The position numbers and the translations under genes are program-made. DNA of 64,000 nucleotides, taken from NCBI GenBank assembly GCA_050633305.1, contig JBOEGF010000010.1:576001-640000 (forward strand), given 5' to 3'. This DNA is from Nannocystales bacterium. GTDB lineage: Bacteria > Myxococcota_A > Polyangia > Nannocystales > Nannocystaceae. The number at the start of each line of letters is the position of its first letter. The first letter of the stretch is position 1. Positions 12,553-33,288 of this stretch are shown here, one piece after another. The notes beneath the pieces were generated by a model. That model made no database searches, was not told the DNA's origin, and saw only the letters and a program-made list of their open reading frames with translations.

Positions 12553-12556
12553 CGTA

Positions 12557-16646: not shown

Positions 16647-17588
16647 CTAGACTTTGCCCACGGCGTGGGAGGAGAGCGCATCGCACAAGGGACCGGTGAT
16701 GTCGACCCCGGCGCGGGCTTCGAATCCCAGGAACATGGGAGAGGGGTTCAACTCGAGGATCCGATAGCGGCCCTCGCGGTCGGCCTTGATGTCCATGCCC
16801 GTGAAGCGAAGGCCCAGGGTCGCCGTGGCGCGTCGGCACTGCGCCGCCACTTCGTCGCTGAGCTGGATCGCCTCGATCTTCTGCTCGTTTTGGCGGAAGT
16901 CGATCTCGTCGGTCACGATTCGCAGCGCGCAGATGACTTGGCCGTCGATGATGTACACGCGCACATCCTCGCCGGGGAGCAACTCCTGGAAGCACACCGG
17001 GGCGGACTCGAGCCGAGCGAGGCGTTCGTCGGTGAGGTGCTCGGGCTCGACCTTGCGCGTGGCCGCACCTCCGGTCACAGGCTTGTAGATCGCCTCGTGC
17101 TCGGCGCAGAAGCGCCGGACCGCAGCGGGGTCGTTGCTCCAAAGGGTAGCCGGAACGGGTAGCTCCGCCGCGTGCAGCAACGCCAGCTGGTACGGCTTCG
17201 TGATGTTGATGCTCGTCGAAGACGGGTTGTACAGAGCTGAACCTGCCAGCTCCCATCGGAGCAACATCGCGGCAAGCGGAGTGGAGCGCTCCCGGAAGGC
17301 AAGCATCGTGCGCCGCCAGTTCTCCTGCATCGCCTCGTCGGCTTCGACGCCGAAGCCGGCAGGGCTCTGATACAGACTGCGTACGTAGACAGCCGCGGGG
17401 CGGCCCAACGCTTGGCCGTCGAGCTCGACCGCCTCGTTGGCCTCGCCGAGCGATAGGGTCATTTCCTCGGGAAAACGCTGTGCATCGAGCACGAGCGGGT
17501 CAAGCCCGCGCTTTTGCAGTTCGTCGTGGACGGCACGCGCGTGCGCATCTTCGAGGGACCCGGCAATGACGATTGGGGGGGACGCCAC
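16647..17588 (-). CDS. psnB: Graspetide ATP-grasp macrocyclase (PsnB-like)
   Basis: KPYQL, P.TLWSND, IYKPVTGG, PVCFQELLPG.DVRV, DFR motif, GMDIK, ILELNPSP; linked to a TTxxxxEE precursor; start placed at GTG 17588. Confidence 0.92.
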   Translation of the reverse strand: MASPPIVIAGSLEDAHARAVHDELQKRGLDPLVLDAQRFPEEMTLSLGEANEAVELDGQALGRPAAVYVRSLYQSPAGFGVEADEAMQENWRRTMLAFRERSTPLAAMLLRWELAGSALYNPSSTSINITKPYQLALLHAAELPVPATLWSNDPAAVRRFCAEHEAIYKPVTGGAATRKVEPEHLTDERLARLESAPVCFQELLPGEDVRVYIIDGQVICALRIVTDEIDFRQNEQKIEAIQLSDEVAAQCRRATATLGLRFTGMDIKADREGRYRILELNPSPMFLGFEARAGVDITGPLCDALSSHAVGKV

Positions 17589-17771
17589 GGCGGCACCGTA
17601 CCACCGGGAGCGAACGGCCCACGGGACTGCGACGAATCGGGATACCTGGCACACCCATCGCGAACCCGGGCCGAGTCACCCGGCGACAGAATGGGATGAC
17701 CCGAGGAAACGCAAAACGCGCCATCTCCCCACCACCCCATCCCGTCCCGCACGGCAGCCCCCGGATGCGCG

Positions 17772-19061
17772 CTACCCCTCGGGCGTGGTGCCGACCGAGA
17801 CGCTGCCGCCATCGGCGATCCACCGGAAGTTGTCCAGCAGCACGGTGGAGTCAAAGGCGGCATCGCCGGTGTCCCAGATCGCGAACCGGATGGTCAGTTC
17901 CTGCCCACCAGTCACCGGGGCGGTGGTGACCAGCCAGCTCGTTGCGCCTGCGTCATTCCACACGTCGAACCCAGTGCCCGCTAGCTCTGCTGTCCCCAGA
18001 GGGCATCCCGCGCAGACCTCGAAGAACGCGATGTTGACGCTCACCGGGTTGGTCATGCTGTCGAACGAAATGTTCCCATTGATGGCCCCCTCGGGAGCAG
18101 GTGTGACGTGGGCGATGTACTGGTCGTTGTACGAGTCGCAGACCCACTCGGGATATTCGAACGAGTAGAAGTTGAAGTTGTACGAGAACCCCGTCGCGTT
18201 TGTCGGGGTACGTAGGGTGACCTCGAGAGCGACATCGTCGTTGATGTCGGATTCTCCAGGGCACTGGGGCACGTCCTGCGGGAATCCCGGTGGTGGTGTG
18301 CCCGGGCCGAAGCCAAAGCAGGTCTGCGAACCGCAGGCATCGGGCTGGCCGGGAGTCCGAGCGTTCCCGGTCGAGAGAACCAACATCTGGCTTCCTTCTT
18401 GGGGGGCGACGTTGGGTCCGAAGTCGAACGACAAACCCGTTTGTGCGGACGCCCCTGCCACCGGGGTCCCATTGGCGCGAACGTACTGCGCATTGATGAT
18501 GCCCCAGTCCGTATCGTCCGCGGCGACCTTGCACAGTCCCATCGCACCCGCTCCCGAGAGGGGGTCTGCGTCGTTGAGCACGTATGCGCCGTCGCAGGCC
18601 GGAGGTATGTTGTCGACTCCGCCATCGCAGTCCTCATCGGCCGGGCTCGGGACCATGCCCATCTCATCGGGCTCGAGGTCGATGACTTCGATCGCACCCG
18701 GGTTGACGTTGGCATCGCAGTCGTTACAGTCGCCGTCGAGCACCGTGAAACCGTCGCCGTCGAGGTCTTCCATGGGCCCGGACTTGCAGCTGTCCTCGGT
18801 TCCGCCGCTGTCGTTCCCGGGCTCGAAGCCCACGTCCCACTTGATGTCGTCGGTCGGTTGCCCGCCGCCACTGGAGTCCGTCTGGCCGCCGTCCGTCGCG
18901 GTCGCCTCGTCGTCACTGGTCTCACTGGGGTCCTCCGCGTCGATGCCCCCAGTGGCGGTCAGACTGCTCGCGGAGTCAAATGGATCGTCGTCCTGTCGGG
19001 TGGAGTCGCAGCCCGGCAGTGCCAGCACGGTACAGAAAGCCGTCAGTATTCGGTGGTCCAT
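17772..19061 (-). CDS. Lipoprotein with DxDGDG/DCND metal-binding motif and choice-of-anchor-L-like domain
   Basis: ALPGC lipobox; DLDGDGF...DCNDCD..NPGA.E..DEDCDG; LVLSTGNA, SFEYPEWVC..YND, IRFAIWDTGD..FDSTVLLDNFRW. Confidence 0.75.
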   Translation of the reverse strand: MDHRILTAFCTVLALPGCDSTRQDDDPFDSASSLTATGGIDAEDPSETSDDEATATDGGQTDSSGGGQPTDDIKWDVGFEPGNDSGGTEDSCKSGPMEDLDGDGFTVLDGDCNDCDANVNPGAIEVIDLEPDEMGMVPSPADEDCDGGVDNIPPACDGAYVLNDADPLSGAGAMGLCKVAADDTDWGIINAQYVRANGTPVAGASAQTGLSFDFGPNVAPQEGSQMLVLSTGNARTPGQPDACGSQTCFGFGPGTPPPGFPQDVPQCPGESDINDDVALEVTLRTPTNATGFSYNFNFYSFEYPEWVCDSYNDQYIAHVTPAPEGAINGNISFDSMTNPVSVNIAFFEVCAGCPLGTAELAGTGFDVWNDAGATSWLVTTAPVTGGQELTIRFAIWDTGDAAFDSTVLLDNFRWIADGGSVSVGTTPEG

Positions 19062-19192
19062 CGCTCCAGTGTCCTCTCGGCCGCGGGTCGTCCGGCCAGC
19101 GGCCCCAGATTGTTGCACGCTTTGGGCCGAGCTCGCCCCGAGGCCGTCGATGAACTGCTGTAAACGCCGAAGGCCTGCCCTCGCGTGACGGA

Positions 19193-19696
19193 CTACCCAC
19201 ACTGGCCGAGCGCCGGCGCCTGGAAGGTGTCGGACGTCTGACCGCTCGGGAAACATGGTACCCAGCCCGTAGGAGGGATGCAGCGTCTTCCGGTCGCGTA
19301 GGCGGAACGAAGATCTTGGCTGCATAGGAACGACTCTTCCTTACAGACCGAGAACTGTCCGCATCCGAGGAAGGTCGGTTCGGCCGAGCAGTCGACGTCG
19401 GAGTCAGTGGTGCAGCGCGTGACGAGATGGCCGTAGACGGCCGAGCACCCCTCGGCTTCACACTGGTCCTCGGTTCGACCGCTGCAGGAGATCGGCTCGG
19501 GGACCCCGCCGACGGTGACCTCCTCGAACTCGCACGTGCTCGCGGGGAGGTCTGCGTGTGGGGCCACGTCTGCGCGCGCGGATACGTCCGTGGTTTCTGC
19601 AACGTCGTCTTGGAGTGCAGTCTCGTCCGATGCGCAGCCCGCAGCAGTGAGCAAGCGGACCAAGCTCAGCGTTGTGACAACCCGCGTCCACGCCAT
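19193..19696 (-). CDS. Small Cys-rich lipoprotein
   Basis: TAAGC lipobox followed by about 11 further Cys (e.g. FLGC, CIPPTGWVPC). Confidence 0.6.
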   Translation of the reverse strand: MAWTRVVTTLSLVRLLTAAGCASDETALQDDVAETTDVSARADVAPHADLPASTCEFEEVTVGGVPEPISCSGRTEDQCEAEGCSAVYGHLVTRCTTDSDVDCSAEPTFLGCGQFSVCKEESFLCSQDLRSAYATGRRCIPPTGWVPCFPSGQTSDTFQAPALGQCG

Positions 19697-19760
19697 CCGC
19701 GGAGGGTAGCAGTCCCGAGCTTGCCAGCGGCAGGGGGCCGTGCCGGTGCGCGTGCGGGAG

Positions 19761-20654
19761 TCATGGAGGCGCCTCCAGACGAACTTGCCCGACGGCGCCG
19801 ATGCGGAGGCTCTCGCGCTGCTGTGCGCTTGGGGTGAGGGTGGCCTCTGCGATCACGAGACGGGTCCCAGGGTCGATCTCCGGTGCGATGGAGCGAACAG
19901 AACCGCGCAGCTCTACCGTAGTTGAACTCGCTGGCCGCTCGAAGAGAACGGTGACGGGCGCCGCGAGGCGCAGGGTGCCGACGCGTGCTTCGGGCACGGC
20001 AAAACGAACGCACCAATCGCTCGAGATCAGTTGAACGACGGGCTCCCCTGCGTCCAGAGTCGACCCTGCGTCGACGTAACGCTTGGCAATCCGGCCCGCA
20101 AACGGGGCGCGTAGCTCCGCCTCCTCGAGTCGGGCCGAGGCTTCGTTCATGTTGTTTCGGCGCTCGGACACGGAGGCTCCTGCGCTACGGATGCGCGCGC
20201 GTGCGAGCTTCTCCTCGAGTCGTTGGACACGAAGCTCGGCCCCGGGTACGAGACCTTCGAGCTGCTCGCTATCCTCGCGGATGGCTCGGGCCTGCTCGAG
20301 TTCGAGCGCGAAACGCTCGAACTCGGCGCTCGACGACCGCCACGCCGCTTTCGCCGAGACCATTTCGCTTTCGTCCTGGCGGACATCCATCTGGGCCACG
20401 ACATCGCCACGGGCAACGGCATCCCCGACCTGGACATCGATTTGTTGCAGACGGGCGAAGCGGCGGGCGACGAGGACGACGTCCGAAGCTGGGACGAGCA
20501 CGCCGAGCATGGCTGCATCGTGCGCGTCGGGGGCCTCCCGAAGCGTGGCCGTCGCGGGGGTGGTCGGTGCGGTGGTGTCCCGCTCTTTCGCGGGCGCGTC
20601 AGGGGTGCATGCGCAACTGACAAGCAGCACGATGGTCCAGCATCGTAGTCTCAT
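19761..20654 (-). CDS. Efflux RND periplasmic adaptor (MFP) lipoprotein, copy 2
   Basis: Clear paralog of 12557..13453 (GVLVP, VGD.V..GD..AQMDVR, LRAPF.G, PEID.GTRL); ATGA overlap with the ABC gene. Confidence 0.88.
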   Translation of the reverse strand: MRLRCWTIVLLVSCACTPDAPAKERDTTAPTTPATATLREAPDAHDAAMLGVLVPASDVVLVARRFARLQQIDVQVGDAVARGDVVAQMDVRQDESEMVSAKAAWRSSSAEFERFALELEQARAIREDSEQLEGLVPGAELRVQRLEEKLARARIRSAGASVSERRNNMNEASARLEEAELRAPFAGRIAKRYVDAGSTLDAGEPVVQLISSDWCVRFAVPEARVGTLRLAAPVTVLFERPASSTTVELRGSVRSIAPEIDPGTRLVIAEATLTPSAQQRESLRIGAVGQVRLEAPP

Positions 20655-22855
20655 TCGACGTTCCTCTCGTACAGCCGGCGATAGACGGACCCTGTGCGCA
20701 GGAGTTCGCGGTGTGTCCCCATTTCGACGACCTCTCCGCGTTCCATCACCAGGATTAGATCCGCGTTGAGGACAGTGCTCAGTCGGTGGGCGATGACGAC
20801 CCGGGTGCACTCGAGGGCGGCAAGCGAGCGCTCGATGGCGGCCTCGGTCACCGTGTCGAGGTTGCTTGTCGCCTCGTCGAGCAGCAGGGTCGCGGGTTTG
20901 CTGGCCAACGCTCGTGCGAGGGCGATTCGCTGACGTTGCCCACCGGACATCGAGGCGCCTCCGTCGGCCAGAATCGTTTCGTAGCCCATCGGGAGAGCGA
21001 CGATGTCGTCGTGGATCGCTGCGCGTTTGCAGGCGTCCGTGACCGCCTCCAGCGTCAATCCGGGCTGCCCCAGCGCGACGTTTTCCCTCACAGACATCGC
21101 GAAGAGATCCGTACGTTGCGTGACGACGCCGAGTTGTTCTCTGACGCTTCGAAGCTCGAGCCCCGCGAGGTCGATACCGTCGTACAGCACCCGACCTGCA
21201 GTCGGTGGGTATAGTCCGACCAGCAGCTTGGCCAGCGTGCTCTTTCCGGCGCCCGAGGCGCCGACGACCGCGACACACTGCCCGGGCTTGATCTCGACCG
21301 ACACCTCTCTCACCGCCATCGGCGTCGCCTCGCTGTACCGGTACGAGACATACTCGGCCTTGATGGCCCCGGTCAGTCTCGGCGCCCGAGTGACCTTCGC
21401 CGGGTCTTGCTCGGTCTCGGTCTGCATCACGTCCTCGATCCGCTCGAGGTACGAACCCAGCAACTGGAACTTGAAACTCACCCGGACCAGCGCACCCAGG
21501 GGGGTGAGGAACGCCGCGCCCAACGCAGAGACGCCCAGCATCACGCCGAGGGTCAAGCCCCCGTCGAATACCATTTTGGCGCCTGTGCCAAGGATGATCA
21601 GCGGGGCTGCCATGCCGAACGTGCTCAACAATGAGTTGACCACAGCATCCAGTCGTCCACGCCGCAGTGAGACGTTGAGACTATCGATGAAGAGGTTGGA
21701 CCACCGTGCAACCGCTCGAGATTCGGCGCCGATGCACTTGAGCGTCTCGATGCCCGTGAGCATCTCGACCTCGTAGCCCGACGTCTTTGCCTGGCAGGCC
21801 AGGCTCTCGCTCATCAGCTCGCGTTGGAGGCGGCGGGTTGCCCAGTACAGCGAGACCTGGACGGCCGCCAGGGCGACAACGACTGTCGCCATCGGTGGGC
21901 ATGCCCAGAACAGCAGGCCCAGATAGAGGGTGACGAGGGCCCCGTCGAGCACGGCCGACATTGCGCCTGATGTGAGGATCTCGCGGACGGTGGCATTGCT
22001 GCCCAATCGCAGCAGCAAGTCGCCGGCCGAGCGCCGTTGAAAGAATGAGAACGGGAGGTCGATCAGGTGGTCGAGAAAGCCCACCGTCATTCTTGCGTCG
22101 AGTAGGGCGCGGAGCTGCAGGAGCAGGTTGGCCCGAACGAGTGCGCTGACGAAGTTGAAAGCGACCATCAGGGTCAAGCCCACGGCCAGCACGGAAAGAA
22201 GGTCGGTGTCGCGCCGTGGAAGGATGCGGTCGACGAGCAAGGTCGTCATGAGCGGCAAAGCCAGCGCAAGGACCTGGAGGAGCAACGACATCATGACGGA
22301 GCGGCCCCACAGGTCGGGATAGGCCTTGAGGTGCGCGAAGTACCGTTGCAGGAGAGGGCGCCGGCGCACACCGGGCTCGAAGGTCTCTCCGGGCTCGAGC
22401 AACAGCGCCACCCCCGTGAACGCTCCGTCGAACTCCGCTCGGGAGACTCGGCGTTGGCCGTGGGCGGGATCGAGGATGGTCACGTCACCCCGCCGGCCGA
22501 CCCGTTCGAAGACGACGAAGTGGTTGAAGTCCCAGTGCAGGATTGTCCCGGCGGGGATCAGATCGAGCTCTTCGAGGCGTTCGAGCTGCACGCCTCGCCC
22601 GCGCAGGCCGTAGCGGCGAGCAGCTGCGAGGATCCCTTGCGCACTCACGCCGTTTTGGTCGGCTCCGGTTGAGTCGCGGACTTCGTCGAGCGGAGTCTCG
22701 CGTCCGTAGTAGCGTAGGACCATCGCGAGGCAGGCGGCGCCGCAGTCCGTGGCCGTCAGCTGCTGCACGCGCTCCAGCCGACGCTTGGATGAACGCCCGA
22801 GTCGGTTCAGGGCGGGAAAGCGGGACGCGAGCGCATGTTCGGGGGCGGAGTTCAT
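20651..22855 (-). CDS. lanT: C39 peptidase-containing ABC transporter (LanT-like), copy 2
   Basis: QQLTATDCGAACL, HWDFNHFVV, ILDPAHG, GASGAGKST, SGGQRQR, LLLDEATS; start MNSAPE at 22855 overlaps the HlyD stop. Confidence 0.95.
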   Translation of the reverse strand: MNSAPEHALASRFPALNRLGRSSKRRLERVQQLTATDCGAACLAMVLRYYGRETPLDEVRDSTGADQNGVSAQGILAAARRYGLRGRGVQLERLEELDLIPAGTILHWDFNHFVVFERVGRRGDVTILDPAHGQRRVSRAEFDGAFTGVALLLEPGETFEPGVRRRPLLQRYFAHLKAYPDLWGRSVMMSLLLQVLALALPLMTTLLVDRILPRRDTDLLSVLAVGLTLMVAFNFVSALVRANLLLQLRALLDARMTVGFLDHLIDLPFSFFQRRSAGDLLLRLGSNATVREILTSGAMSAVLDGALVTLYLGLLFWACPPMATVVVALAAVQVSLYWATRRLQRELMSESLACQAKTSGYEVEMLTGIETLKCIGAESRAVARWSNLFIDSLNVSLRRGRLDAVVNSLLSTFGMAAPLIILGTGAKMVFDGGLTLGVMLGVSALGAAFLTPLGALVRVSFKFQLLGSYLERIEDVMQTETEQDPAKVTRAPRLTGAIKAEYVSYRYSEATPMAVREVSVEIKPGQCVAVVGASGAGKSTLAKLLVGLYPPTAGRVLYDGIDLAGLELRSVREQLGVVTQRTDLFAMSVRENVALGQPGLTLEAVTDACKRAAIHDDIVALPMGYETILADGGASMSGGQRQRIALARALASKPATLLLDEATSNLDTVTEAAIERSLAALECTRVVIAHRLSTVLNADLILVMERGEVVEMGTHRELLRTGSVYRRLYERNVE

Positions 22856-23787
22856 CGATCCTCGAATCTGGGCAGGAGGGTCTCCAGGAGCGTCTCGGAG
22901 CGCAGCTTGGCTTCGAGTGTCCCTTGCATGCCGTCGTAGAGTTCGTAGTAGGTGTTGTCGGCGGCGAAGGTGCGGGTGAGCATCTCGGTCTCGACCACGA
23001 CGACCGGACCTCGCAGATCCATCGCCCCTTCGCGGTCGGGGCCGAGGTAGCGCATTGCCTCTGTGGGGCCCACGACCTCGTCCGCAATCGAGCGCACTCT
23101 GACCGCATGACGCTCCTCGGGGAAGCCCTCGAGTTCCAAGAATAGGGTGCTTTCGTCGGCGCTCAACAGGGGGCGGGTTCGCCCAGGGAAGAGCCCGATG
23201 ATCACCGTACGAGAATCGTCGTCGTCGAGAGACACGATGGCGTTGCCGGGGGCCACCGCTTGGCCCGGACGCACGCGGACGTCGGAGACACGCCCTGCCC
23301 GAGGCGCACGCACCGAGCGCTCGTTCAGCTTGGCGCGTGCAAGCTGGAGTCGAGTGTCGACCGCCGCGAGTCGCTCGTTTCGGGCACCGTCCGAGGGGTC
23401 GCGTAGCAACTCGACCAGGCGCTGCTGGTGCTCTCGGTCGACACGGCCCAGCTCGGCGACCTGCGTAGCGTTGTCCAACGTTGCCAAAACCTCGCCTTCG
23501 TGGACCCACTGCCCAGGTCGAACATCGATGCTCTGTATCGTCCCCGCGACGGCCGAGCTGACCACGCTACGTCCCTCGCGACGGACCACCGCGATGCCCT
23601 GAGCGTACTCACCCACCTGAGCGGTCGCGGCGAAACCAAGCCCCGCCAGGACCGCGAGCACCGACACCCGTGTCGCCCACCGGGCCCACGACGAGGCGAT
23701 GTTGAGTGGTCGCCCCGAACGCGCTCCCCGGCGGTGCGCCTCCAGGGCCGCGTTGCGGAATCGAGGGCCTCGGCCGTGGCTGCTCAC
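22852..23787 (-). CDS. HlyD-family secretion adaptor, copy 2
   Basis: Paralog of 15651..16619 (FR..AL.AHR.GAR.GRPL.I, VGEYAQG, YDGMQGTLEAKLRSETLLETL). Confidence 0.88.
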   Translation of the reverse strand: MSSHGRGPRFRNAALEAHRRGARSGRPLNIASSWARWATRVSVLAVLAGLGFAATAQVGEYAQGIAVVRREGRSVVSSAVAGTIQSIDVRPGQWVHEGEVLATLDNATQVAELGRVDREHQQRLVELLRDPSDGARNERLAAVDTRLQLARAKLNERSVRAPRAGRVSDVRVRPGQAVAPGNAIVSLDDDDSRTVIIGLFPGRTRPLLSADESTLFLELEGFPEERHAVRVRSIADEVVGPTEAMRYLGPDREGAMDLRGPVVVVETEMLTRTFAADNTYYELYDGMQGTLEAKLRSETLLETLLPRFEDR

Positions 23788-23880
23788 GCGGACCTCTTGG
23801 TGTGGGACGAGCGGGGCATGCTTTCCTACTCCCTCCGCGGCGGACGACGGAGTTCTGACGAACCTGATCTGAGAAAGTTG

Positions 23881-24981
23881 CTACCAGACCAAGTCGGGCA
23901 TGAAATCCTCATGGACGAGTGTCAACACGCGGTGGGCCCCGCTACCGGGCCGTAGGTGCTTGGCAAGGTCGCAGGCGAGCTGGGGCAGGGCCGCTCGGAG
24001 GCTTTGGGCCCGTGTGCGGCAGTTGTCCTGCTCTTGGGTCGTGAGGGCGTCGGTACGGAGCAGTGCCTGGTGTAGCTGGATCACGCAGCGGTAGATCACC
24101 AGCGCCTGGAGCATCGTCACCAGGGGTCGCATCTGGCCGGAAATGGGGGAGCGCAGGCTCGGTCCCCACCGCGGTAGGCCACACGGCGGGCAGAGTTCCC
24201 ACCAGAGCCACATGCGCTGGTGCAGATACTCGTGCAACAGCCCCTCGCACAAGGCAGGCACTCCAACGGAGAAGGGATTGACGAAGACCGCTCCGGGCAG
24301 GCGTAGGCGCAGGTTGAAACTCCAGTGCGCTTGGGGCAGAGGCTGCCCTTGTTCGTGGGGAACGGGGGGCAGCAGTGCGGTTGTGGTGATGGTGCGCTCA
24401 AAGTCGGCGAACACCACCTGGTCGACTCGGGACAGCAGAGCCCGTGCTCGCTCGTATTGCCGCAGGGCGTGCGCCGAGCAACCCGGCTTGGCCGACATTG
24501 CGTACACCGGAGGAAACGGAAGGTCTGCGAACAGCCCGGGGATGGGGAAATACACAACGTGTCCCCCGGCGGACCTGCGATGGGCATCGAGGGCGATGAC
24601 CTCCCCGCCGCGGCGCTCGACCACACCGTGGCCCAGGTGGGGCAGGCGGTAGATTCCGCTCTCAATGCCCGGGCCACTGGGGGATACGCCTCCGCTCAGC
24701 ACGTCGAGTCGATGCAGCAGTTGAGTTGCCGTATCCAGGTCGGGGCACCGATCGCCCAGACAGACGAGGGGCGCATGGATTTCGGGGGAGTTCCCCAACG
24801 CCCGACTCAGGTCCCCAAGGCGTGCCTCGAGCGCGTCGAGCTGCGTGTCCAGGGCCCGCAGGGAGGCGTTCTTACGGCGACTGTTGCGAAGCAACCGCCG
24901 CGGCAGGCTCGAGCGGGCCTGTAGCTGCTGCTCGGCGTTGATCGGGGCCAGGACATCGATCAAGGATTGGACGCGGAACAC
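23881..24981 (-). CDS. HExxH-motif peptide-modifying protein (aKG-HExxH dioxygenase-like)
   Basis: PGAVFV...LCEGLLHEYLHQRM...LRSPISGQMRPLVTMLQA resembles the HExxH...SPWR.D.RPL..LL(H/Q) pattern; GGAGGT RBS 7 nt before GTG 24981. Confidence 0.75.
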   Translation of the reverse strand: MFRVQSLIDVLAPINAEQQLQARSSLPRRLLRNSRRKNASLRALDTQLDALEARLGDLSRALGNSPEIHAPLVCLGDRCPDLDTATQLLHRLDVLSGGVSPSGPGIESGIYRLPHLGHGVVERRGGEVIALDAHRRSAGGHVVYFPIPGLFADLPFPPVYAMSAKPGCSAHALRQYERARALLSRVDQVVFADFERTITTTALLPPVPHEQGQPLPQAHWSFNLRLRLPGAVFVNPFSVGVPALCEGLLHEYLHQRMWLWWELCPPCGLPRWGPSLRSPISGQMRPLVTMLQALVIYRCVIQLHQALLRTDALTTQEQDNCRTRAQSLRAALPQLACDLAKHLRPGSGAHRVLTLVHEDFMPDLVW

Positions 24982-27632
24982 GTCGCCGACCTCCAGGCGG
25001 TGGTTCGGCCGGCCTCCTGGGGGACGTGGCGCCATCTCTCCAGAAGGTTGCGGGCGAACAGGAGCGCCCAGGCTTCCTCGGCGCGGTTGTGACGGAAGTG
25101 CAACCGTGTGCCGGTCATGTGGACGACCGATCTCAGGTGCTTGCACAAGCGAAGGCGATTGTCCTGCCCAAGCCACGCGCTCAGGTGGTGGGCGCGTTGT
25201 ACGAGCGCAGCGTGCATGGTCTCGTCACCGTCTCCAACTGCCGTGCTCACCAAGGCCCGACGGCGAGCTCTCCACATGTTTCCGACCGCGCGGCGGTCAT
25301 CGGTCGAGTAGCCGAACTCCGCGCAAAATGAGTCGAAAGCACGGCGGCAGAAGGCGTGCTGCGCATCGGGGGAGAGTCCCGCGTAGTCCAAGGTCTGAAG
25401 GATCGCAAGCGCGTACAAGTTGGTGCGCCGGTCGTCCATCAGCGGAAGGCCACTGCAAGCGTCGTAGAGGCTGGCCGAGTCCGCGACGAACAGCGCCTCG
25501 ACCGCCTCGATGTCCGCGGCACCGCCGTAGCGGTCCCACTCACGCACGTAGGGTTCGACCGCAAAGTGCCGAACGATTCGTTGGTCGAGCATGACGTCGA
25601 GCCGCTCCATGAGAGCGTGCATGACCGCGGGCTGCCCCGCAGGGATGCGTAGGCGTAGCTCGCTCTCGACCTCATCGGAGAGGAACACGTAGAAGAACTG
25701 GACCTCGCCGAGGCTCTCGCGAAGCTCGCGAAGGACTGTGGGCATGCGCTCCGACAGCGCGCTTACTCGAAGGGTTCGGTACGGGCCGAGCAGGGCACCG
25801 GGGGCAGGACGAGGAACTTTGGGGACCCGCAGCCGCTTGGCCACGGACCCGAACGTGACGGGGAGCAGGGCGTGGGCAGCGTGGCCCCGACCGTCAATGA
25901 CAAGGTCTACGGAGGGCAGCCGCTCGGAGACCGCGAGGCGCTGCTGCCGACGAAGCCGCTTGAAGAGGTCTCGTCGTGCCGCGCAGTCGACAGCGGGGTC
26001 AAGGGGCAGCGCGCCACTGCTCGAGTCTACGGTGACCTCGCAGTCGGCCAACCCGACCCGTTCCAGCCATGTCGGCAGCGTGTCTTCGGTGAGCTCCGCT
26101 GGTACGGGGGCCCGACGTCGACACAACACGTGCCCACCGTAGGTGATACGTGGCCGAACCGGGAGTCCCTTGAACGCTACGTCGAGAAGACTGCGACCCG
26201 GGCGTTCTGCGGTTGCAGCTCGAGACAGAAGACGAACCAGTGGGTGCAGTGCCCGGTTGGAGTCGTCGTACGGCACTGGCCGCACGATCCTCAGCTGGCG
26301 TTGCTCCTCACGGGTGCGCACCAGCAGCCTATCCCCGGTCGCGCTGACTTCGAGGTCCTCGAGACGAAGGGTCCGTTGTGAGTCGCTGGCTCGGCCGCAG
26401 TATTCCAGCGCGAGAACCCCTGGGACACGGACGTCTGCGATCTTGTCGAGTACGCCCGGACCTCGGTACGCGAGCATGACCGTCTCGGTCCCTTCCTCGT
26501 CCAACCCTGGCAGGCGCTCCGCGAGCCCCGGCAAGTCGTAGCGGCCGATCAGCTCCCGCGGGTGGGCGGAGAACAAGGCCGGGCCCACCAGGCGACCGTC
26601 GGCACTCCATCGAGTGCCGAGCAACATGACGCCCGACCACGACGATGCGGGCAAGGGGGCGTCGGTGAGGTCGATGGACGACTCGAACGCACGAGCTCGC
26701 AGCCAACGCACGAATGGCTCGTCTGCAGCGGCGACCTCGAACTCGGGGTTGTCCGCTCGCTCCAGCAGACCTTCAGCCATCCGCTCGAGTTCAGGCATGG
26801 GGAGCCACCGCCCGTCGAGGCGCTTGTCGAGCAGGCGCTGGAGGACTGGGGGCTCGGACCGTGTGCACCGCAGCAGCACCTCCGCTACCTCCTGCACATC
26901 AGCGAGGGCTGCGGGCATGCGTACCGGCCGGGCGAAGGTGGCGAACGCGTTGGTCGGCGTCTCGGTTGCATCTTGACGGGCGGTGACCTCTGCGACGGCC
27001 TCGCCGAGCGACTCTACGTTCGGCCTGGCCTCGTCGTTCCACAGTGAGCATGCACCTGGGGGCTCGAGGACCCCCATGTCGAGAAGTCGGTCGAGTAGAG
27101 CGCGAACACGATCAGCTGGAATCCCTTCTGTTTGCAGGCAAGTTTCCCACTCGATGCGAGTCCCGCCGCGCTGGCGCAGCAATGCCTCGCGAAGGCCCTT
27201 CGGTAGGCCCAGCCGTTTGGCATGGAACACGTCCGCGGCGACGTCGCGTTGGTAGACGGTGACGGCATCCGCGTGGAACACCGCGCTGGTGGAGACCGCC
27301 AGGGTTTCGGGATGCTTGCCGGGCAGCCGGGCCCCGAGCGGGTGACTGCGCTGCACTCGAACGTCGCTCAGCGACGGTTCGCCTCCGGCGGGTGTCGCGA
27401 TCGCGGCCGCGGCGAACAGGCTGCGAGGGATCGAGCGTGAGCGGGCACGGGCTTCGTACAGCGCCCGAACTGCCGGAAGCTCGCCGCGCTGGATCTGGGC
27501 GGGAAGGTCAGGGTTGGACGACGCGACCGCAATCGCCGCGAGGAACCGTTGTCGTTCGTCCTCGGGCGCGCCATCCCACGAGAAGTCGCTCGGGAACAGG
27601 GACGTTCGCAATACACACCAGTCGACGCTCAT
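24960..27632 (-). CDS. lanB: LanB-like lanthipeptide dehydratase with C-terminal elimination domain (divergent, about 890 aa)
   Basis: LRTSLFP, FLAAIAVASS, YEARARSRSIPRSLFA, IGRY, LEDLEV, PRITYG; ELRLRI, YVREWDRYGG, EALFVADS, SVVHMTGTRL; ATG overlaps the lanC stop. Confidence 0.8.
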   Translation of the reverse strand: MSVDWCVLRTSLFPSDFSWDGAPEDERQRFLAAIAVASSNPDLPAQIQRGELPAVRALYEARARSRSIPRSLFAAAAIATPAGGEPSLSDVRVQRSHPLGARLPGKHPETLAVSTSAVFHADAVTVYQRDVAADVFHAKRLGLPKGLREALLRQRGGTRIEWETCLQTEGIPADRVRALLDRLLDMGVLEPPGACSLWNDEARPNVESLGEAVAEVTARQDATETPTNAFATFARPVRMPAALADVQEVAEVLLRCTRSEPPVLQRLLDKRLDGRWLPMPELERMAEGLLERADNPEFEVAAADEPFVRWLRARAFESSIDLTDAPLPASSWSGVMLLGTRWSADGRLVGPALFSAHPRELIGRYDLPGLAERLPGLDEEGTETVMLAYRGPGVLDKIADVRVPGVLALEYCGRASDSQRTLRLEDLEVSATGDRLLVRTREEQRQLRIVRPVPYDDSNRALHPLVRLLSRAATAERPGRSLLDVAFKGLPVRPRITYGGHVLCRRRAPVPAELTEDTLPTWLERVGLADCEVTVDSSSGALPLDPAVDCAARRDLFKRLRRQQRLAVSERLPSVDLVIDGRGHAAHALLPVTFGSVAKRLRVPKVPRPAPGALLGPYRTLRVSALSERMPTVLRELRESLGEVQFFYVFLSDEVESELRLRIPAGQPAVMHALMERLDVMLDQRIVRHFAVEPYVREWDRYGGAADIEAVEALFVADSASLYDACSGLPLMDDRRTNLYALAILQTLDYAGLSPDAQHAFCRRAFDSFCAEFGYSTDDRRAVGNMWRARRRALVSTAVGDGDETMHAALVQRAHHLSAWLGQDNRLRLCKHLRSVVHMTGTRLHFRHNRAEEAWALLFARNLLERWRHVPQEAGRTTAWRSATCSASNP

Positions 27633-28690
27633 GATGACCTCTTCGGGTAGGGGGGGGAAGGGGGTTCTCGTGGCCGCAGCGGCGGGGGGAGGAACAGATC
27701 GAGGGCGCGGGAGGAGGGCTCCTCCGCGTGCAGCGCAGGCAAGCAGCTGGGTAGGCCAGACAAGGGCCGCAACATGTCGTGGGCGAGTCGTGACGGCACT
27801 CTCGCCCACAGACGGAGGAGGGTGTCCTCGGCCTCGGTCGCCCGGGGTCGGATCCCCGACCGCAAGAACCGGGAGACCACCATCGCCCGCCCTGCGTGGC
27901 CGCAGCAGAACCCAAGGTTCATCTCGCTCTCGTCGGCACTGGCGGCCAGTGCCTTCTGGGCGATGTCCAAGTACGCATCGCAGTCCAACCGAATGGCTGC
28001 TTCGAGATAGACCAGCGCGTGGCCAACGCTTCCGCTGCAGAGGCTGGAGGCCACCCAGGAGTGGTGGACCGGTTGCCCTTCTCGCACGGGCCAGCGCGCG
28101 CACCCGTCATCCTCGGTTCGCAGCCCTGCCAACCAGTCCAGGCCTCGGCGTACCCGATCTCCTTCGACCGGCGAGGGCTCGTTGAGCAACAGCGCGCGAA
28201 AGAGCAGACCTGCGACACCGTGGGCAAACCCCAGCGGCAAGGCCCGGCCGCTCTTTCGGCCGCGCTCGAAGTGGAGGAACTCTTGGTGAATGAAGTCAGC
28301 CCACCCAGGCGGGTCCGGGGAATCGCTGGCCAAGTACACGGGGCCGTCGTTGGCAAAGGTATCGAAGCCCAGCGCACGTGCCGGCGGTGCGAAGTCCTTG
28401 CCGTCCACGCCGCTGAGGCGTCGTTCGGCCCACCTTCGCCCACGAGTTCCGTACAGGAACGAGCCTCGAACCTCGACTGGGACGTCAGGCTCAGGTGCAT
28501 CCAGACTTCGCCAGCGGACGGCGGCTTGCCTCAGATCGAGAACGCTCGCGCCCGCGGTCTGTTCGAGGCATTGTTGCACGAACAAGAGGCCAGGCCAGCC
28601 GCTGCAGATTGTAGGGCCGCCGATCTCGGCGGTCGTCGCATTGCGACAGCGGTCGAGGACCGCCATGAAGGCGTCGGTACGGAGGTTCAT
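27629..28690 (-). CDS. lanC: LanC-like lanthionine cyclase
   Basis: FLYGTRG, LGFAHGVAG, RWP, LCSGSVG and LGFCCGHAG motifs. Confidence 0.82.
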   Translation of the reverse strand: MNLRTDAFMAVLDRCRNATTAEIGGPTICSGWPGLLFVQQCLEQTAGASVLDLRQAAVRWRSLDAPEPDVPVEVRGSFLYGTRGRRWAERRLSGVDGKDFAPPARALGFDTFANDGPVYLASDSPDPPGWADFIHQEFLHFERGRKSGRALPLGFAHGVAGLLFRALLLNEPSPVEGDRVRRGLDWLAGLRTEDDGCARWPVREGQPVHHSWVASSLCSGSVGHALVYLEAAIRLDCDAYLDIAQKALAASADESEMNLGFCCGHAGRAMVVSRFLRSGIRPRATEAEDTLLRLWARVPSRLAHDMLRPLSGLPSCLPALHAEEPSSRALDLFLPPPLRPREPPSPPYPKRSS

Positions 28691-28706
28691 CGCTTGCTCG
28701 TGAACC

Positions 28707-28744
28707 GGGCCGGTGGCGCAAGGGGGGACCCGCGCCACCGTCCC
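28707..28744 (-). terminator. Stem-loop between the precursor gene and lanC
   Basis: cggtggcgc (28711-28719) pairs perfectly with gcgccaccg (28732-28740), extendable by ggg/ccc. Confidence 0.6.
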
Positions 28745-28754
28745 GAAGGACGTC

Positions 28755-28961
28755 CTACCAGTCGCCCCAGGGGTGGGTGGAGTCGGTGCAGGAGGGGTCG
28801 CCGGGCTTGCACTTCTTCGCGACGGGGGCCGGTGCCGGTGTTGCGCCGGTGTCAGCGGTGCCTCCGTTTGTTCCACCGAGCACGAGGCCAAGGTCCTCCT
28901 CGGTGATGCCGTCGATCAGGTCGTTCAGAGAGCGTTTGTCGTTGTGGGTCTTGCCAAACAT
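28755..28961 (-). CDS. lanA: RiPP precursor peptide (double-glycine leader, Ser/Thr/Cys-containing core)
   Basis: Leader ends ITEEDLGLVLGG; core TNGGTADTGATPAPAPVAKKCKPGDPSCTDSTHPWGDW; first gene of the lanC-lanB operon. Confidence 0.85.
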   Translation of the reverse strand: MFGKTHNDKRSLNDLIDGITEEDLGLVLGGTNGGTADTGATPAPAPVAKKCKPGDPSCTDSTHPWGDW

Positions 28962-29229
28962 CGTTGGATCTTCGCTTTCGTCGTTGTTGCTTTCGTTCGG
29001 AACGAACCCCGGGATTTCCCGGATTCATTGAGCCCTCTGCACCGAGAGCCCGGGTTCTGACGCGGACAACGGTGTTTTTTTGGATGGCGACCAGTCCCAG
29101 CCCAGTCGCGTGATCGAGGCTCTGCGCGATTGGGCCCTGGCATCGAGGCTCGGTGTGCCCCGAACCTGCAGAGACGATTCGTCGTCCGCTGGGGCAACTC
29201 CTCGGTCCCTCGATGCTACCGTTCGAGGT

Positions 29230-30411
29230 GTGAGCGACATCAGGACCTCGGCTTTCCTCGCGCATGCCTTGGTCGGGCTGATGCTGTGCGGCTGCGGCAA
29301 CGACACGGGTGCAGACGATTCCGGGCCCGGGTCCAGCTCGACGAGTGATCTGTCGGCGGGTCCGACGAGCGAGCCGGAGTCCAGTTCGACGACGCAAGAC
29401 ACGGGTCCGAGTCCCCAATCGACGACGGGTACAACCGGTGGGGGGACCGCCACGTCCGATCCCGACACGGGGAGTTCATCCGAGTCCGGGGACACCGGTG
29501 GACTCGTCGACGACGGCCCCGTGGGCTGGGCTAGCGTCGCCGGCCGGGGCGTTCGGACCACCACCGGCGGCGCCGCGGGGCGCACGGTCACGGTCACGAC
29601 GCTCGACGAACTCGAGATGTACGCGGGGGCCGAAGAGCCCTACGTCATCCAGCTCTCCGGGACGATCACCGGATCGGTTCGTGTTCGCTCGAACAAGACC
29701 CTCGAAGGCCTGCCGGGGGCCGAGCTTGTGGGTGGGCTCGCGATCATCGGGGAAGACGACGGCTTCGTCTCCAACATCATCGTCCGGGACCTGACCGTCC
29801 GCATGGACAACTGCCCCGGCGACGGGTGCAGCTCGGATGATGCCGTCACGGTCTATCGAGCGCATCACATCTGGGTCGACCATTGCGACATCAGCGATGG
29901 CGACGATGGAAACCTCGACATCACCGCGGAGTCCGACTTCGTCACGGTCTCGTGGTGTCGCTTCTCATACAGCAACGACTCCGGAGGCCACCGTTTCTCC
30001 AACCTGATCGGTGCCTCGGACGGCGCGACCGAAGACCAAGACGACCTCGCGGTCACGCTGCACCACAACTGGTGGACGGCCAATGTCTCCGAGCGCATGC
30101 CTCGGGTGCGCTTTGGCCCGGTACACGTGTTTAACAACTACTACACGCCAACCGACGCCCTGTACTGCATGCGGGCGGGCTTCGAAGCAGACCTTCGCAT
30201 CGAGAACAACTACTTCGAAGGGGTGAGCAACCCGTTCGACGCTGGCAACACGGCTCCCTCGGCGCAAGTCTTGGCGACCGGCAATGAGTTCAGCCCGATG
30301 CCGATTCCCGAGCCCGACCAGGGCGACGTCTTCGACCCGCCCTACGCGTATTCGCTGGACGCCGCCTCGGACGTTCCTGCTGTGGTCATGGCCGGCGTTG
30401 GGCCGCGATAG
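29230..30411 (+). CDS. Pectate lyase family 1 lipoprotein
   Basis: MLCGC lipobox; TTGGAAG, SNKTLEG, NIIVRDL, IWVDHC, VTLHHNW, RMPRVRFG.VHVFNNYY. Confidence 0.92.
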   Translation: MSDIRTSAFLAHALVGLMLCGCGNDTGADDSGPGSSSTSDLSAGPTSEPESSSTTQDTGPSPQSTTGTTGGGTATSDPDTGSSSESGDTGGLVDDGPVGWASVAGRGVRTTTGGAAGRTVTVTTLDELEMYAGAEEPYVIQLSGTITGSVRVRSNKTLEGLPGAELVGGLAIIGEDDGFVSNIIVRDLTVRMDNCPGDGCSSDDAVTVYRAHHIWVDHCDISDGDDGNLDITAESDFVTVSWCRFSYSNDSGGHRFSNLIGASDGATEDQDDLAVTLHHNWWTANVSERMPRVRFGPVHVFNNYYTPTDALYCMRAGFEADLRIENNYFEGVSNPFDAGNTAPSAQVLATGNEFSPMPIPEPDQGDVFDPPYAYSLDAASDVPAVVMAGVGPR

Positions 30412-30498
30412 GCCACGGGACCAGAGCCCGACACAGGTGGCGTCGACGGCCTCGGGTGGATCGCCGCCCGTCGGAGAAGAGTGCCTGCCCGCGAGATG

Positions 30499-33288
30499 TC
30501 ATGGGACGCGTCGTGCGTCGAGCCACGACGCAATCGCGTCCACGTCGTCGTCGCGACTCTTCTTGGCGTAGCCGCGGCTGGAGGCCTCGGCGAGTTCGAT
30601 CGCCCGCTGACGATCTCCGTCGCTCGCCCAAAGCGCACGGGCAAGCGGCCACTGAATGTCTTCGACCTCGAGCGGGGGCTCGATCTCGAGGGCCATCCCG
30701 AGCGCGTGTTCGAGCTCTGTTGCCGCCTGGCCGGCCTCTCCCTGTTTGAGCAGAGTCTGTCCGAGCCCCAAGTGTGCCTGCACGGTGGAGTCGATGCGCA
30801 TCTTGTGTTTCTTGTAGATCGATGCGGCTCGCCGGAACCGCTTGCGGGCATCGGTGAGTTCGTCCTGAGCAAGCAACACGTTGCCGAGGAGGGTGAGGGA
30901 GTAGGCTGTCTTGGCGTTGTCCTGGCCCAGGCTTGCTTCGCGGATGCGCACCGAGTCTTCGGCATAGCCGCGCGCTTTGTCCAGGGACCCTTTCCTCAAG
31001 TGGAGCTGGACCAAGTTGTTGAGCGGGAAGCTCAGCTGGGGGTGGTCGGCCCCGAGCAGCGTCCGGTGCATCGTGTGGGCGCGTTCGACATACGCGACGG
31101 CGTCGTCGTACTGACCCTGCAACCTCGCGACTTCGCCGAGGTTGGAAAGGCATGTGGCCAGCAGGGGGTGTTGTGGCCCCAAAACCTCGGCCCAGACGTC
31201 GGCGGCCTCTTCGAAGTACGCTTGCGATTGGTCGAGGTTGCCCTGTCGTGCGACGACGGGCGCCAGGTTGTTGAGCGAGTGGCCGACGTAGAGGTTGCGC
31301 GGTCCAAGTTCGCGTCTGCGAATCTCGAGCGCCTCTTCGTGAAAGGCCTGCGCGCGCTCCAGGTCGCCGGCAATGTCGGCGAGGATGCCCACACTATTGA
31401 GATGCGAAGCGTAGGACAGTGGGCTGGTACGTCGCGAGAGCGCCTCGGAGCTGGTGGACCATGCCCAGGCGACTTCGTACTTGCCGAAGGGTTCGGCGAG
31501 GAGGCCAACGATCATCCGTGCGGCGATCGCAGCCTCGCGGTCCATCAGTCGTCCAAGGGCCAGGCTGTAGCTCCGCTCGAAGCTCGCCAACGACTGTTCG
31601 TAGTCGCCGGTACGACTCGCGGCGATGGCGAGCGAGAGGGAGGCGTGGACATGCAGTGGTTCGTAGTCGAGGGGCTCGGCTTCGGCGGCGGCCGCAGTCG
31701 CGAGCGCGAGACTCTCGTCGTAGCGCCCAAGGTCACCAAGTGCAGCCGCGCGAGCAAGCTTCTCTTCGACCAGCGCCACATGGGAAGCCAGCTCTGGGTT
31801 CTCGGGCGGCGCTTGTTCGGCCAAGAGGGCGTCCGTGTCCGCGCACCGCCCGAGCGAGGGGAGGTCCTCGGTCGCGGTGACCGCGTTGCGCAAGGTGGTG
31901 TCGTCGGTCTCGGCGAGACCATCGAGCATGGCCTGGAGCCGGACCAAACGTCCGTCGAGGCAGCCCATGCGGCGGTCGAGTAGGTCCCCCGACTGCTCGC
32001 CACGTTGCGTGGCTTCGCAGGCGTCAACCCGTGCAAGCAACCATTGATCGGTGTAGGCCTGGAGCCGGGTTTCGACGCGGCTCCAGGTCGCGCCGGCGTA
32101 GCTGCGCCCCGTGGCTTCGAATGCGGCCTCGAGCTCGGAGATTCGCGACGCGTCCCAAATGCCTGCGAGGTGCTGCTCCATGTTCGCGCAGGCCGCAGCA
32201 TCGCGTTGGAACAGTGCAACGCTGCCCCAGGTGCCGCCGACGAGGAGCCCCAACACCCCTACCGAAACACCGATCCTGCGACGGCGGATCGCGGGGTCGT
32301 TGGCGAGCGCGTCGAGGAGGTGGGCCATGGAGGGCCAGCGAGCGCCGGGGTCGACCGCAAGGCCACGACGCAGGACCTCGTGTAGCCAGTTCGGTACGGA
32401 GCTTTCACGGGGGGCGGGGCGGACCTCTCCCTCGCGTACAGCCAGCGCCATCGCCACCACCGACGAGGAGGGAAAGGGGCGCTCGCCATACAGCGCTTCC
32501 CACAGCGCGACACAGAAGCTGAACTGGTCGCTCGGGGCCTCGACTGCCCTGCCAGCGAACTGTTCGGGCGACATATATGCGGGCGTCCCCAGCAGGGTAC
32601 CGGCTTCGGTCAGCACGACGTCCATCGAGCCCAACGATGCCTCCTGCCGTCCCGATGGGCGCTCGTCGGTGGTATGCAGCTTGCCGCGCGCGAGCCCGAA
32701 GTCCATGACTCGTACGCGCCCGTTGTCGTCAACCATGACGTTGTCGGGCTTGAAGTCACGATGAACGAGGCCCGCACCATGGGCCGCTGCAAGCCCGCGC
32801 CCCGCGGCAATGAACACGGGGAGCACCTCTTTCCACGAGCGCGGGTCCTTACCCTTGCGCATCCACTTGCCCAGCGTTTGTCCCTCGACGAACTCCATCG
32901 CGATGAAGAGCTGCTCGGCATGCGTACCGACGTCGAAGACCCTCACGACGTTGGGGTGATCGAGTTTCGCGAGGGCCTGAGCCTCGCGCTCGAGGCGGAT
33001 CTTGTCCGCGTCCGTAGCGTTGCTGTACTCGGCGTTCGTGCAGCTGCCTTGGCGCTTGAGCAGCTTGAGCGCGACCTTGCGATCGAGCTTGGGATCGTAC
33101 GCCGCCAGCACGACGCCCATCCCGCCCTCACCGAGCATGTCGGCGACCAAGTATCGGCCTACCGACTCACCCCGGCCGGGTGGAGGTGGCCCGGAGTGTC
33201 CGCCCTCAGACAGGGCCGTGTCCGAGGGCAGTGGACCGGCCGCAGGTGTCCCGACCACAGTCTCGACCAACGACTTCCGGCCGGGCAT
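30499..33288 (-). CDS. Ser/Thr protein kinase with TM segment and TPR repeats
   Basis: LGEGGMGVV, VALK, HRDFKPDN, DFGLA, GTPAYMSPE; HP...LNNL TPR units. Confidence 0.95.
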   Translation of the reverse strand: MPGRKSLVETVVGTPAAGPLPSDTALSEGGHSGPPPPGRGESVGRYLVADMLGEGGMGVVLAAYDPKLDRKVALKLLKRQGSCTNAEYSNATDADKIRLEREAQALAKLDHPNVVRVFDVGTHAEQLFIAMEFVEGQTLGKWMRKGKDPRSWKEVLPVFIAAGRGLAAAHGAGLVHRDFKPDNVMVDDNGRVRVMDFGLARGKLHTTDERPSGRQEASLGSMDVVLTEAGTLLGTPAYMSPEQFAGRAVEAPSDQFSFCVALWEALYGERPFPSSSVVAMALAVREGEVRPAPRESSVPNWLHEVLRRGLAVDPGARWPSMAHLLDALANDPAIRRRRIGVSVGVLGLLVGGTWGSVALFQRDAAACANMEQHLAGIWDASRISELEAAFEATGRSYAGATWSRVETRLQAYTDQWLLARVDACEATQRGEQSGDLLDRRMGCLDGRLVRLQAMLDGLAETDDTTLRNAVTATEDLPSLGRCADTDALLAEQAPPENPELASHVALVEEKLARAAALGDLGRYDESLALATAAAAEAEPLDYEPLHVHASLSLAIAASRTGDYEQSLASFERSYSLALGRLMDREAAIAARMIVGLLAEPFGKYEVAWAWSTSSEALSRRTSPLSYASHLNSVGILADIAGDLERAQAFHEEALEIRRRELGPRNLYVGHSLNNLAPVVARQGNLDQSQAYFEEAADVWAEVLGPQHPLLATCLSNLGEVARLQGQYDDAVAYVERAHTMHRTLLGADHPQLSFPLNNLVQLHLRKGSLDKARGYAEDSVRIREASLGQDNAKTAYSLTLLGNVLLAQDELTDARKRFRRAASIYKKHKMRIDSTVQAHLGLGQTLLKQGEAGQAATELEHALGMALEIEPPLEVEDIQWPLARALWASDGDRQRAIELAEASSRGYAKKSRDDDVDAIASWLDARRVP

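Follow-up and report, generated by a model that had tools for sequence, protein, structure and literature searches.

Seven open reading frames lie on the minus strand in the order lanA-lanC-lanB-HExxH-hlyD-PCAT-MFP within the 64,000-nucleotide stretch of DNA analysed here (the window), as the first-pass annotation had stated. The lanA gene (28755..28961) encodes a 68-aa precursor and is followed by a GC-rich hairpin in the lanA-lanC gap (28705..28746), by lanC for a cyclase of 353 aa (27629..28690), by lanB for a compact, divergent, full-length dehydratase of 890 aa with glutamylation and elimination domains (24960..27632), and by the gene for a stand-alone 366-aa protein of the aKG-HExxH fold (23881..24981), whose GTG start is backed by the N-termini of its homologues. 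The exporter genes come last: hlyD for a HlyD-type adaptor (22852..23787; 311 aa), PCAT for a C39-peptidase ABC exporter (20651..22855; 734 aa), and MFP for a second membrane-fusion protein (19761..20654; 297 aa). In line with the overlaps noted earlier, ATGA overlaps occur at three junctions (lanC/lanB, hlyD/PCAT, and PCAT/MFP) and lanB overlaps the HExxH gene by 22 nt; 93 nt separate the latter from hlyD. The window had been described as free of radical SAM genes, and none of the genome's 41 radical-SAM matches falls inside it; the nearest, the sole one on the same contig, is about 260 kb off. We found no Rfam matches at 11000-31000, and promoter and terminator scans gave a signal no better than chance. 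The hairpin, with a 12-bp core stem and no U-tract, is indeed present after lanA, but its fold is modest in the window (z -1.90; 8 of 200 shuffles equally stable) and strong in the corresponding gap of the related locus L003 (z -4.08; 0 of 200 shuffles as stable); an inverted repeat was spotted by eye in G049. Its probable role in the window is to stabilise the lanA transcript or to attenuate read-through.

The order lanA-lanC-lanB-HExxH is kept at 49-63% protein identity in two further Nannocystaceae genomes, G047 (locus L003) and G049 (loci L095 and L002, split by a contig break within lanC), so the gene arrangement is not a matter of chance. Full-length LanB-clade and HExxH-clade matches fell in the same 3 of the 72 genomes of the order, with HExxH-clade matches above 340 bits and every other match in the 72 genomes at or below 45 bits; the LanC clade was found in 3 of 400 genomes of the class, again the same three. 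The precursor accompanies all three enzymes in each of them, which bears out the proposed association of precursor and enzymes. These are the only near-complete loci seen, and since all come from one family, they are not independent. A related LanB/LanC/double-Gly cluster in Polyangiaceae (L004) has no HExxH gene, and the HExxH oxygenase is therefore an accessory.

The LanA precursor, which has no Pfam match, carries a double-Gly leader of 30 aa with Ile-12, Glu-9, Leu-7, Val-4, and Gly-Gly; the pattern of hydrophobic residues at -12, -7, and -4 with Gly-Gly is found in all five homologous precursors. PCAT matches Peptidase_C39 (E 4e-33) with its Gln/Cys and His/Asp motifs intact, in agreement with the C39-type leader assigned before. 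The exporter trio is a paralogue of the adjoining graspetide (plesiocin-type) exporter, with identities of 62% for hlyD (to 15651-16619), 71% for PCAT (to 13450-15654), and 51% for MFP (to 12557-13453). Of the suggestion that the exporter is dedicated to this cassette, adjacency in the window genome stands, but this is the case in only one of the three Nannocystaceae loci, no such exporter standing beside the cassette in G047 and G049. The 38-aa core contains Cys51, Ser57, Cys58, Thr59, and Thr62, and the five cores share the pattern C-K-x4-[ST]-C-T-D-[SA]-T-x-P-x-G-[DE]-W, in which Lys52, Asp60, Pro64, Gly66, and Trp68 are invariant. Each core has two Cys and at least three Ser/Thr, and each genome has one cognate precursor. 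For the unmodified window core we calculate a monoisotopic mass of 3793.71. Because two of the five cores have no Ser/Thr ahead of the first Cys, the Cys residues would have to attack dehydro residues downstream of them.

LanB had been called divergent, and this holds: it is only 12-18% identical to the NisB, MibB, and MadB structures and measures 890 aa, compared with 1023-1106 aa for 14 canonical LanBs (as trimmed in the same searches), while retaining the full NisB/MibB fold. Lant_dehydr_C matches it at E 6e-28. The model matched MadB, MibB, and NisB over the whole chain (Foldseek E 7e-28 to 1e-23) and the TbtB glutamylation domain (E 2e-18), structural matches reached Z 16-20, and profile-profile comparison with the 14 canonical LanBs gave 99.7% over residues 29-860. 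Eleven of 15 NisB active-site positions (R14, Y80, R83, R87, R464, R784, R786, E823, R826, H961, and R966) are the same in all 10 LanB homologues. The equivalents of Thr89 (Thr in 2 of the 10) and of Asp121, at an unconserved position, are missing, the Tyr776 position is Leu or Val, and Asp299, which MAFFT did not place, seems to correspond to Thr232 in a manual register only. In one study NisB no longer dehydrated its peptide with T89A, D121A, or D299A, but in L. lactis the loss was partial (PMC4341554). The elimination domain keeps the anti-lyase signature of R784, R786, R826, and H961 plus Tyr (PMC9486935), except for the Tyr. The clade is a natural experiment on the need for individual NisB residues.

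The cyclase matches LANC_like (E 7e-11), and its His157 takes the NisC His212 position, with Cys218 and Cys262 also aligned to NisC. The CCG motif recognised in the first reading is confirmed: Cys262-Cys263 replaces CHG, Cys263 standing in place of the His ligand, and all four LanC clade members retain the catalytic His together with a complete set of zinc ligands of CCG type. A three-Cys zinc site is likewise found in the CCG-motif LanM cyclases ProcM and SyncM. Those are promiscuous LanM enzymes, whereas here the motif occurs in a stand-alone class I LanC beside a single cognate precursor, and this LanC can serve as a test of whether ring closure from Cys to downstream residues accompanies a three-Cys zinc site.

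The HExxH protein carries His250-Glu251-His254, which all 76 aligned relatives share. Its model (pLDDT 95) resembles ChlH (8s5f; Z 23.1, rmsd 4.5, 303 aligned) and SjiH (22ob; Z 22.8, rmsd 3.8, 320 aligned), after which structural matches drop to Z 8.9, and its family profile matches ChlH at E 1.4e-10. With ChlH, SjiH, BpmH/BipH, PflC/PosC, and PesO (TIGR04267/IPR026337) it shares the fold and the HExxH, SF, SP, and RP motifs, and like PflC and PesO it is stand-alone. Nevertheless, it is only 13-16% identical to the characterised oxygenases and belongs to its own subfamily, below the TIGR04267 cut-off of 40 bits (29-32 bits, E 5e-7 to 8e-7; 36 bits for its orthologues). Gln292 occupies the position of the conserved His of ChlH and PosC, their putative third iron ligand. 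Among the 76 relatives this position is Gln in 43, His in 31, and Asp in 2, and it switches at least 10 times in a quick tree; the G049 orthologue has His there, and in another myxobacterial HExxH group the His sits three residues later. The partner enzymes of the window protein are LanB and LanC, not rSAM or MNIO enzymes. The aKG-HExxH oxygenases are a recently found family whose reactions are still unpredictable (PMC13060819); known substrate residues include Asp, His, Pro, and Gln, and ChlH requires a pre-formed ring (PMC12636437, PMC13060819).

The locus had been proposed as a new RiPP system with a product of an unrecognised type. No match to a characterised cluster was found, but we read the system as a variant of class I lanthipeptides and not as a new RiPP class; a dehydrated, thioether-bridged, and oxidised product would still be expected from the sequences and models. 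Like class I systems (NisB/NisC, MibB, MadB; 4wd9, 6m7y, 5ehk, 9g04, 2g02), the cassette has separate LanB and LanC, a full LanB fold, 11 NisB active-site residues, LanC His and zinc Cys, and a Ser/Thr/Cys core. It differs in having CCG for CHG, in the loss of T89, D121, and Y776, in the absence of an FxLD box, and in that both rings would have to run from Cys to downstream Ser/Thr. Neither of two features offered as novel is so. Passages of Walker et al. 2020 (PMC7268733) already describe Gly-Gly leaders and C39 exporters for class I precursors, mainly in Bacteroidetes, with one Myxococcus fulvus example in the supplement; HExxH enzymes whose listed cluster genes include no radical SAM have been characterised as PflC/PosC and PesO. 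The clusters in those passages share the double-Gly leader, class I enzymes, and C39 protease-transporter, but the window LanA has no LxLxKx5L motif and an unrelated core, and the term HExxH does not occur in the passages or in one supplement file. The coi/lanthivirin clusters (bioRxiv 10.64898/2026.08.26.747419) are also class I, with an oxygenase, CoiH, adding +16 Da after cyclisation. Unlike the cassette, they are actinobacterial and have no protease, and CoiH is described as having a new fold with no obvious metal site; CoiH was rejected as the identity of our oxygenase, which has the ChlH fold. We found no paper on a LanB/LanC-HExxH pairing and no aKG-HExxH enzyme described on a lanthipeptide in the literature. 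The building blocks are known, and it is their pairing and its product that appear uncharacterised.

Most likely, this rare conserved cassette makes a sulfur-bridged peptide that is then oxidised by an unusual iron enzyme. From sequences and models, we propose that the cassette encodes a divergent class I lanthipeptide with two Cys-to-downstream-Thr/Ser rings, tailored by an aKG-HExxH oxygenase, a reading to which we assign a probability of about 0.62. LanB, given its fold and most of its catalytic residues, would glutamylate and dehydrate core Ser/Thr, most likely Ser57, Thr59, and Thr62. The three-Cys zinc LanC would then join both Cys to downstream dehydro residues, with one putative ring from Cys58 to Thr62 and the other from Cys51 to residue 57 or 59. 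With Fe(II), 2-oxoglutarate, and O2, the HExxH enzyme may oxidise the cyclised core (+16 Da), by analogy with ChlH and PesO most likely at the beta-carbon of the invariant Asp60 in the small ring, or at the invariant Pro64. The C39 ABC transporter would cleave after Gly30 and export the core, through the adjacent copy in the window and probably through a plesiocin-type exporter in trans in the relatives. As a default guess, the product is a secreted antagonistic or signalling peptide.

It is conceivable, although we consider it unlikely, that the same lanthipeptide is made and that its oxygenase does not beta-hydroxylate: the enzyme could alpha-hydroxylate Gly66 and cleave oxidatively, taking off the G-[DE]-W tail to leave a C-terminal amide, or it could sulfoxidise a thioether or cross-link Trp68. 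Backbone cleavage by PosC falls four residues short of the C-terminus, at Ala and in part at Gly (PMC12636437), and the invariant Gly66, placed 3-4 residues before the end in all five precursors, suits such chemistry; having Gln in place of His at position 292 may affect the iron site, and methyllanthionine sulfoxide is known from class I clusters, there through the unrelated CoiH. However, beta-hydroxylation is the activity of most characterised HExxH enzymes, our present data do not link the clade specifically to PflC/PosC, and the invariance of Trp68 would be easier to explain if the residue has a function in the product than if it is lost with the tail.

The sub-cut-off score, Gln292, and the L004 cluster could also mean that an ordinary class I lanthipeptide is made while the co-transcribed HExxH gene product is inactive on LanA or serves only as a binding scaffold. 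This we regard as improbable, since its His250/Glu251/His254 triad is invariant and its gene goes together with lanB at each of the three loci, and the restriction of position 292 to three residues, with repeated switching and His in G049, looks like a tolerated exchange rather than decay. Least probable to us is a dehydrated peptide bridged by a disulfide instead of thioethers, or a divergent LanB whose activity is not full dehydration. A disulfide could form between the two Cys, six residues apart, and T89, D121, Y776, and perhaps D299 are lost; the intact LanC site and the kept R784, R786, R826, and H961 of the anti-lyase signature (PMC9486935) argue against this reading.

Returning to the tailored lanthipeptide, the cassette is a four-gene, one-substrate test of aKG-HExxH action on a lanthipeptide, in which the G049 enzyme has His and the window enzyme Gln at the position of the putative third iron ligand, a natural contrast on nearly the same substrate. 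We would only tentatively suggest, with the odds against it, that an unstudied HExxH subfamily, its iron held by two His and one Gln, works on a reverse-cyclised bicyclic lanthipeptide from a compact LanB in which three or four of the "essential" residues of NisB are missing, with chemistry new to lanthipeptides (Gly cleavage that leaves the C-terminus amidated, thioether sulfoxidation, or cross-linking of Trp). Standard HMMs gave a divided picture: LANC_like and Lant_dehydr_C match, but TIGR04267 stays below its cut-off and Lant_dehydr_N misses the window LanB, matching three of six scanned homologues (that of L003, P0007, and P0009 (just under cut-off)). Since both of these models miss in the window, similar clusters are likely under-annotated. 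A metagenome scan with the LanB alignment returned three matches, to the C-terminal domain only, with no clade members. Plasmid tblastn with four HExxH family members gave two weak canonical matches for one and none for three, and 401 genomes of another phylum gave no HExxH matches (5 candidates scored per genome, without a positive control). Among 401 genomes of the same phylum, the sole strong HExxH match was G000. With a limit of E 1e-10, the enzyme's own subfamily comprises 111 clusters, WP_283137726.1 being one of its members, and the relative P0076 comes from Rhizohabitans arisaemae, the sole organism named by cluster look-ups.

We propose that the product of the lanthipeptide cassette is made by the following route: LanB would dehydrate Ser/Thr residues of the LanA core, LanC would close two reverse-direction rings, the HExxH protein (a 366-aa candidate oxygenase) would add oxygen at Asp60 or Pro64, and the C39 transporter would remove the leader. 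We give this pathway as a whole a probability of about 0.62, and we infer each of its reactions from observed folds, motifs and synteny and from a constraint on ring direction. All seven genes claimed in the first-pass annotation are open frames on the minus strand, in the order stated there: lanA (28961-28755), lanC (28690-27629), lanB (27632-24960), the HExxH gene (24981-23881), hlyD (23787-22852), the PCAT gene (22855-20651) and the MFP gene (20654-19761). The overlaps it described are also present, with ATGA at three junctions and 22 nt shared by lanB and the HExxH gene; 93 nt separate the latter from hlyD. The hairpin claimed 3' of lanA is modest in the window (z -1.90) and strong in L003, the homologous locus of the Nannocystaceae genome G047 (z -4.08). 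None of the genome's 41 radical-SAM matches falls in the window, as had been noted. At 29080-33297 lie a pectate-lyase-domain protein (E 1e-25), divergent from lanA, and a putative Ser/Thr kinase with TPR-like repeats, with no indication that either belongs to the cassette.

The cassette is real and conserved. LanB has nine relatives at 44-72% identity among 8000 scored candidates, and the genome collection yielded 13 loci, three of them full-length matches. L003 keeps the order lanA-lanC-lanB-HExxH; G049, also of the Nannocystaceae, has the cassette split by a contig break inside lanC. Across 72 genomes of the order, LanB matches of any kind occur in 12 and HExxH matches of any kind in 32, with full-length LanB and HExxH scores above 340 bits only in the window's genome, G047 and G049, and every other HExxH match at or below 45 bits. 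The LanC clade was detected in these same three among 400 class genomes; the three are kin, the window genome and G049 belonging to one family. The distribution is patchy, since the cassette is absent from all 6 other genomes of the window's genus. A Polyangiaceae locus, L004, encodes a LanB 31% identical, with lanC and a double-Gly precursor of unlike core, and its genome has no HExxH match; this cluster (8133-17248), of the window's LanB/LanC clade, has a four-Cys precursor, a CCG LanC and a convergent pair of ABC exporter genes, whose long C39 type is unusual. In L003 the HExxH gene is followed, after 104 nt and in the same orientation, by a cytochrome P450 gene (13847-15268, E 5e-99), a possible extra tailoring enzyme that neither the window nor G049 has.

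The double-Gly leader claimed for LanA is of textbook type in all five homologues, in which a variable Ala/Pro/Gly-rich linker precedes a common core, C-K-x4-[ST]-C-T-D-[SA]-T-x-P-x-G-[DE]-W. Because two of the five cores have no Ser/Thr ahead of the first Cys, both Cys, if both are used, must attack downstream dehydro residues; since neighbouring residues cannot form a ring, we infer a Cys58-Thr62 ring and one from Cys51 to residue 57 or 59. The G049 core has three Ser/Thr in total. A product with a disulfide, or with incomplete dehydration, seems very improbable to us.

The LanC is of CCG type, as claimed, and so are all four members of its clade. In a weak alignment (E 0.016), His157, Cys218 and Cys262 match NisC positions that we take to be catalytic and zinc residues, and Cys263 stands in for a NisC His. 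LanC-like frames were detected in 7 of 22 canonical-LanB loci scanned (none in the remaining 15), and all seven carry CHG. In the portions of the sources available, descriptions of CCG concern LanM enzymes alone, ProcM among them (PMC10027976, PMC12328550), whereas here it lies in the LanC of a LanB/LanC cassette.

For the LanB, called divergent, Pfam recovers the elimination domain and not the N domain; the full fold comes from the model (pLDDT 75, pTM 0.58), which aligns end to end with MadB, MibB and NisB and also with the TbtB glutamylation domain. With NisB numbering transferred via 14 canonical LanBs, all 10 homologues keep R14, Y80, R83, R87, R464, R784, R786, E823, R826, H961 and R966, and R826 and H961 point to anti-elimination (PMC9486935). 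The Thr of T89 is kept in 2 of 10, and the D121 position shows no conservation; Leu or Val replaces Y776, and D299, which MAFFT did not place, falls at Thr232 by manual register. According to PMC4341554, the T89A, D121A and D299A variants gave no dehydration in a study based on E. coli, but most of it persisted in L. lactis. Elsewhere, a 1551-codon frame in a Phycisphaerales genome (L005, 6272-10924) carries both LanC and LanB motifs and is possibly a fusion.

The HExxH protein falls short of the TIGR04267 cut-off (about 30 against 40 bits), but its model (pLDDT 95) reaches Z 23.1 with ChlH and Z 22.8 with SjiH, against Z 8.9 for the next match. Its unnamed subfamily has 179 representatives at E 0.001 and 111 at 1e-10. 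We aligned 76 near-full-length sequences, drawn from 7 relatives found in one search and 150 representatives listed in another and excluding fragments, one 542-aa protein and weak matches. The HExxH motif is invariant among them, and we consider it improbable that the protein is an inactive passenger. The position of the ChlH and PosC His (PosC read by eye), presumably an iron ligand, is Gln in 43, His in 31 and Asp in 2; a quick tree implies 10 or more switches there. Another chemistry, such as cleavage at Gly66, would have a precedent in PosC, which cleaves at Ala or Gly (PMC12636437, in the part available); by that analogy it is conceivable, though unlikely, and we favor oxygen addition. 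A separate HExxH group (L044-L076) is widespread in Nannocystales, with weak matches in about 30 of 72 genomes and a downstream His three residues later than that of ChlH.

The system proposed as new varies class I lanthipeptide biosynthesis in a new way and does not constitute a new RiPP class; it is apparently uncharacterised so far, although an earlier report may exist. Neither its leader type nor an HExxH enzyme free of radical SAM is new, the exporter is not specific to this cluster, and few family members were seen. Published work already describes class I clusters that combine Gly-Gly leaders with C39 exporters (PMC7268733), as well as HExxH enzymes from clusters in which no radical SAM is listed (PMC12636437, PMC13060819). 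Canonical aKG oxygenases and P450s are recorded in lanthipeptide clusters. Full-text searches, covering few subscription journals and no preprint supplements, turned up no paper on an HExxH enzyme in a LanB/LanC cluster. In the CoiH preprint text available, HExxH appears in the references alone; PMC12912966, also seen in part, names aKG-HExxH proteins and lanthipeptide dehydratases as auxiliary enzymes of radical-SAM clusters, leaving co-occurrence unstated.

The claim of a dedicated exporter applies to the window's genome alone. The hlyD/PCAT/MFP trio has a counterpart (62/71/51% identity) at 16619-12557, which serves the cluster of an ATP-grasp gene and its precursor (12253-12471), and no such trio lies within the DNA examined around the G047 and G049 cassettes. 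This second cluster (12253-17588) has its ligase, HlyD, PCAT and MFP on the minus strand and, at its far end on the plus strand, a 72-aa precursor with the LFIEDL leader and four TTxxxxEE repeats, the leader and repeat type of plesiocin, a group 2 graspetide (bioRxiv 2021.03.09.434688, seen in part). The ATP-grasp gene occurs in 22 of 72 genomes of the order. G047 and G049 have the plesiocin-type cluster away from the cassette, with the precursor preceding the ligase on one shared strand; the PCATs there are closer to the window's graspetide PCAT (80-82% identity) than to its lanthipeptide PCAT (72-74%). G047 also has an unlike C39 pair (26% identical) about 16 kb upstream of the cassette. The simplest explanation for these two genomes is export in trans. 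Two proteins encoded between the window's two RiPP clusters (17772-19696) are probably lipoproteins or secreted; one of them has a choice-of-anchor L domain (E 8.5e-15). On another G049 contig (L110, G049:C402), a double-Gly precursor at 2169-2480 has about eight tandem 7-residue Cys/Tyr/Pro repeats, with HlyD and a C39 exporter downstream.
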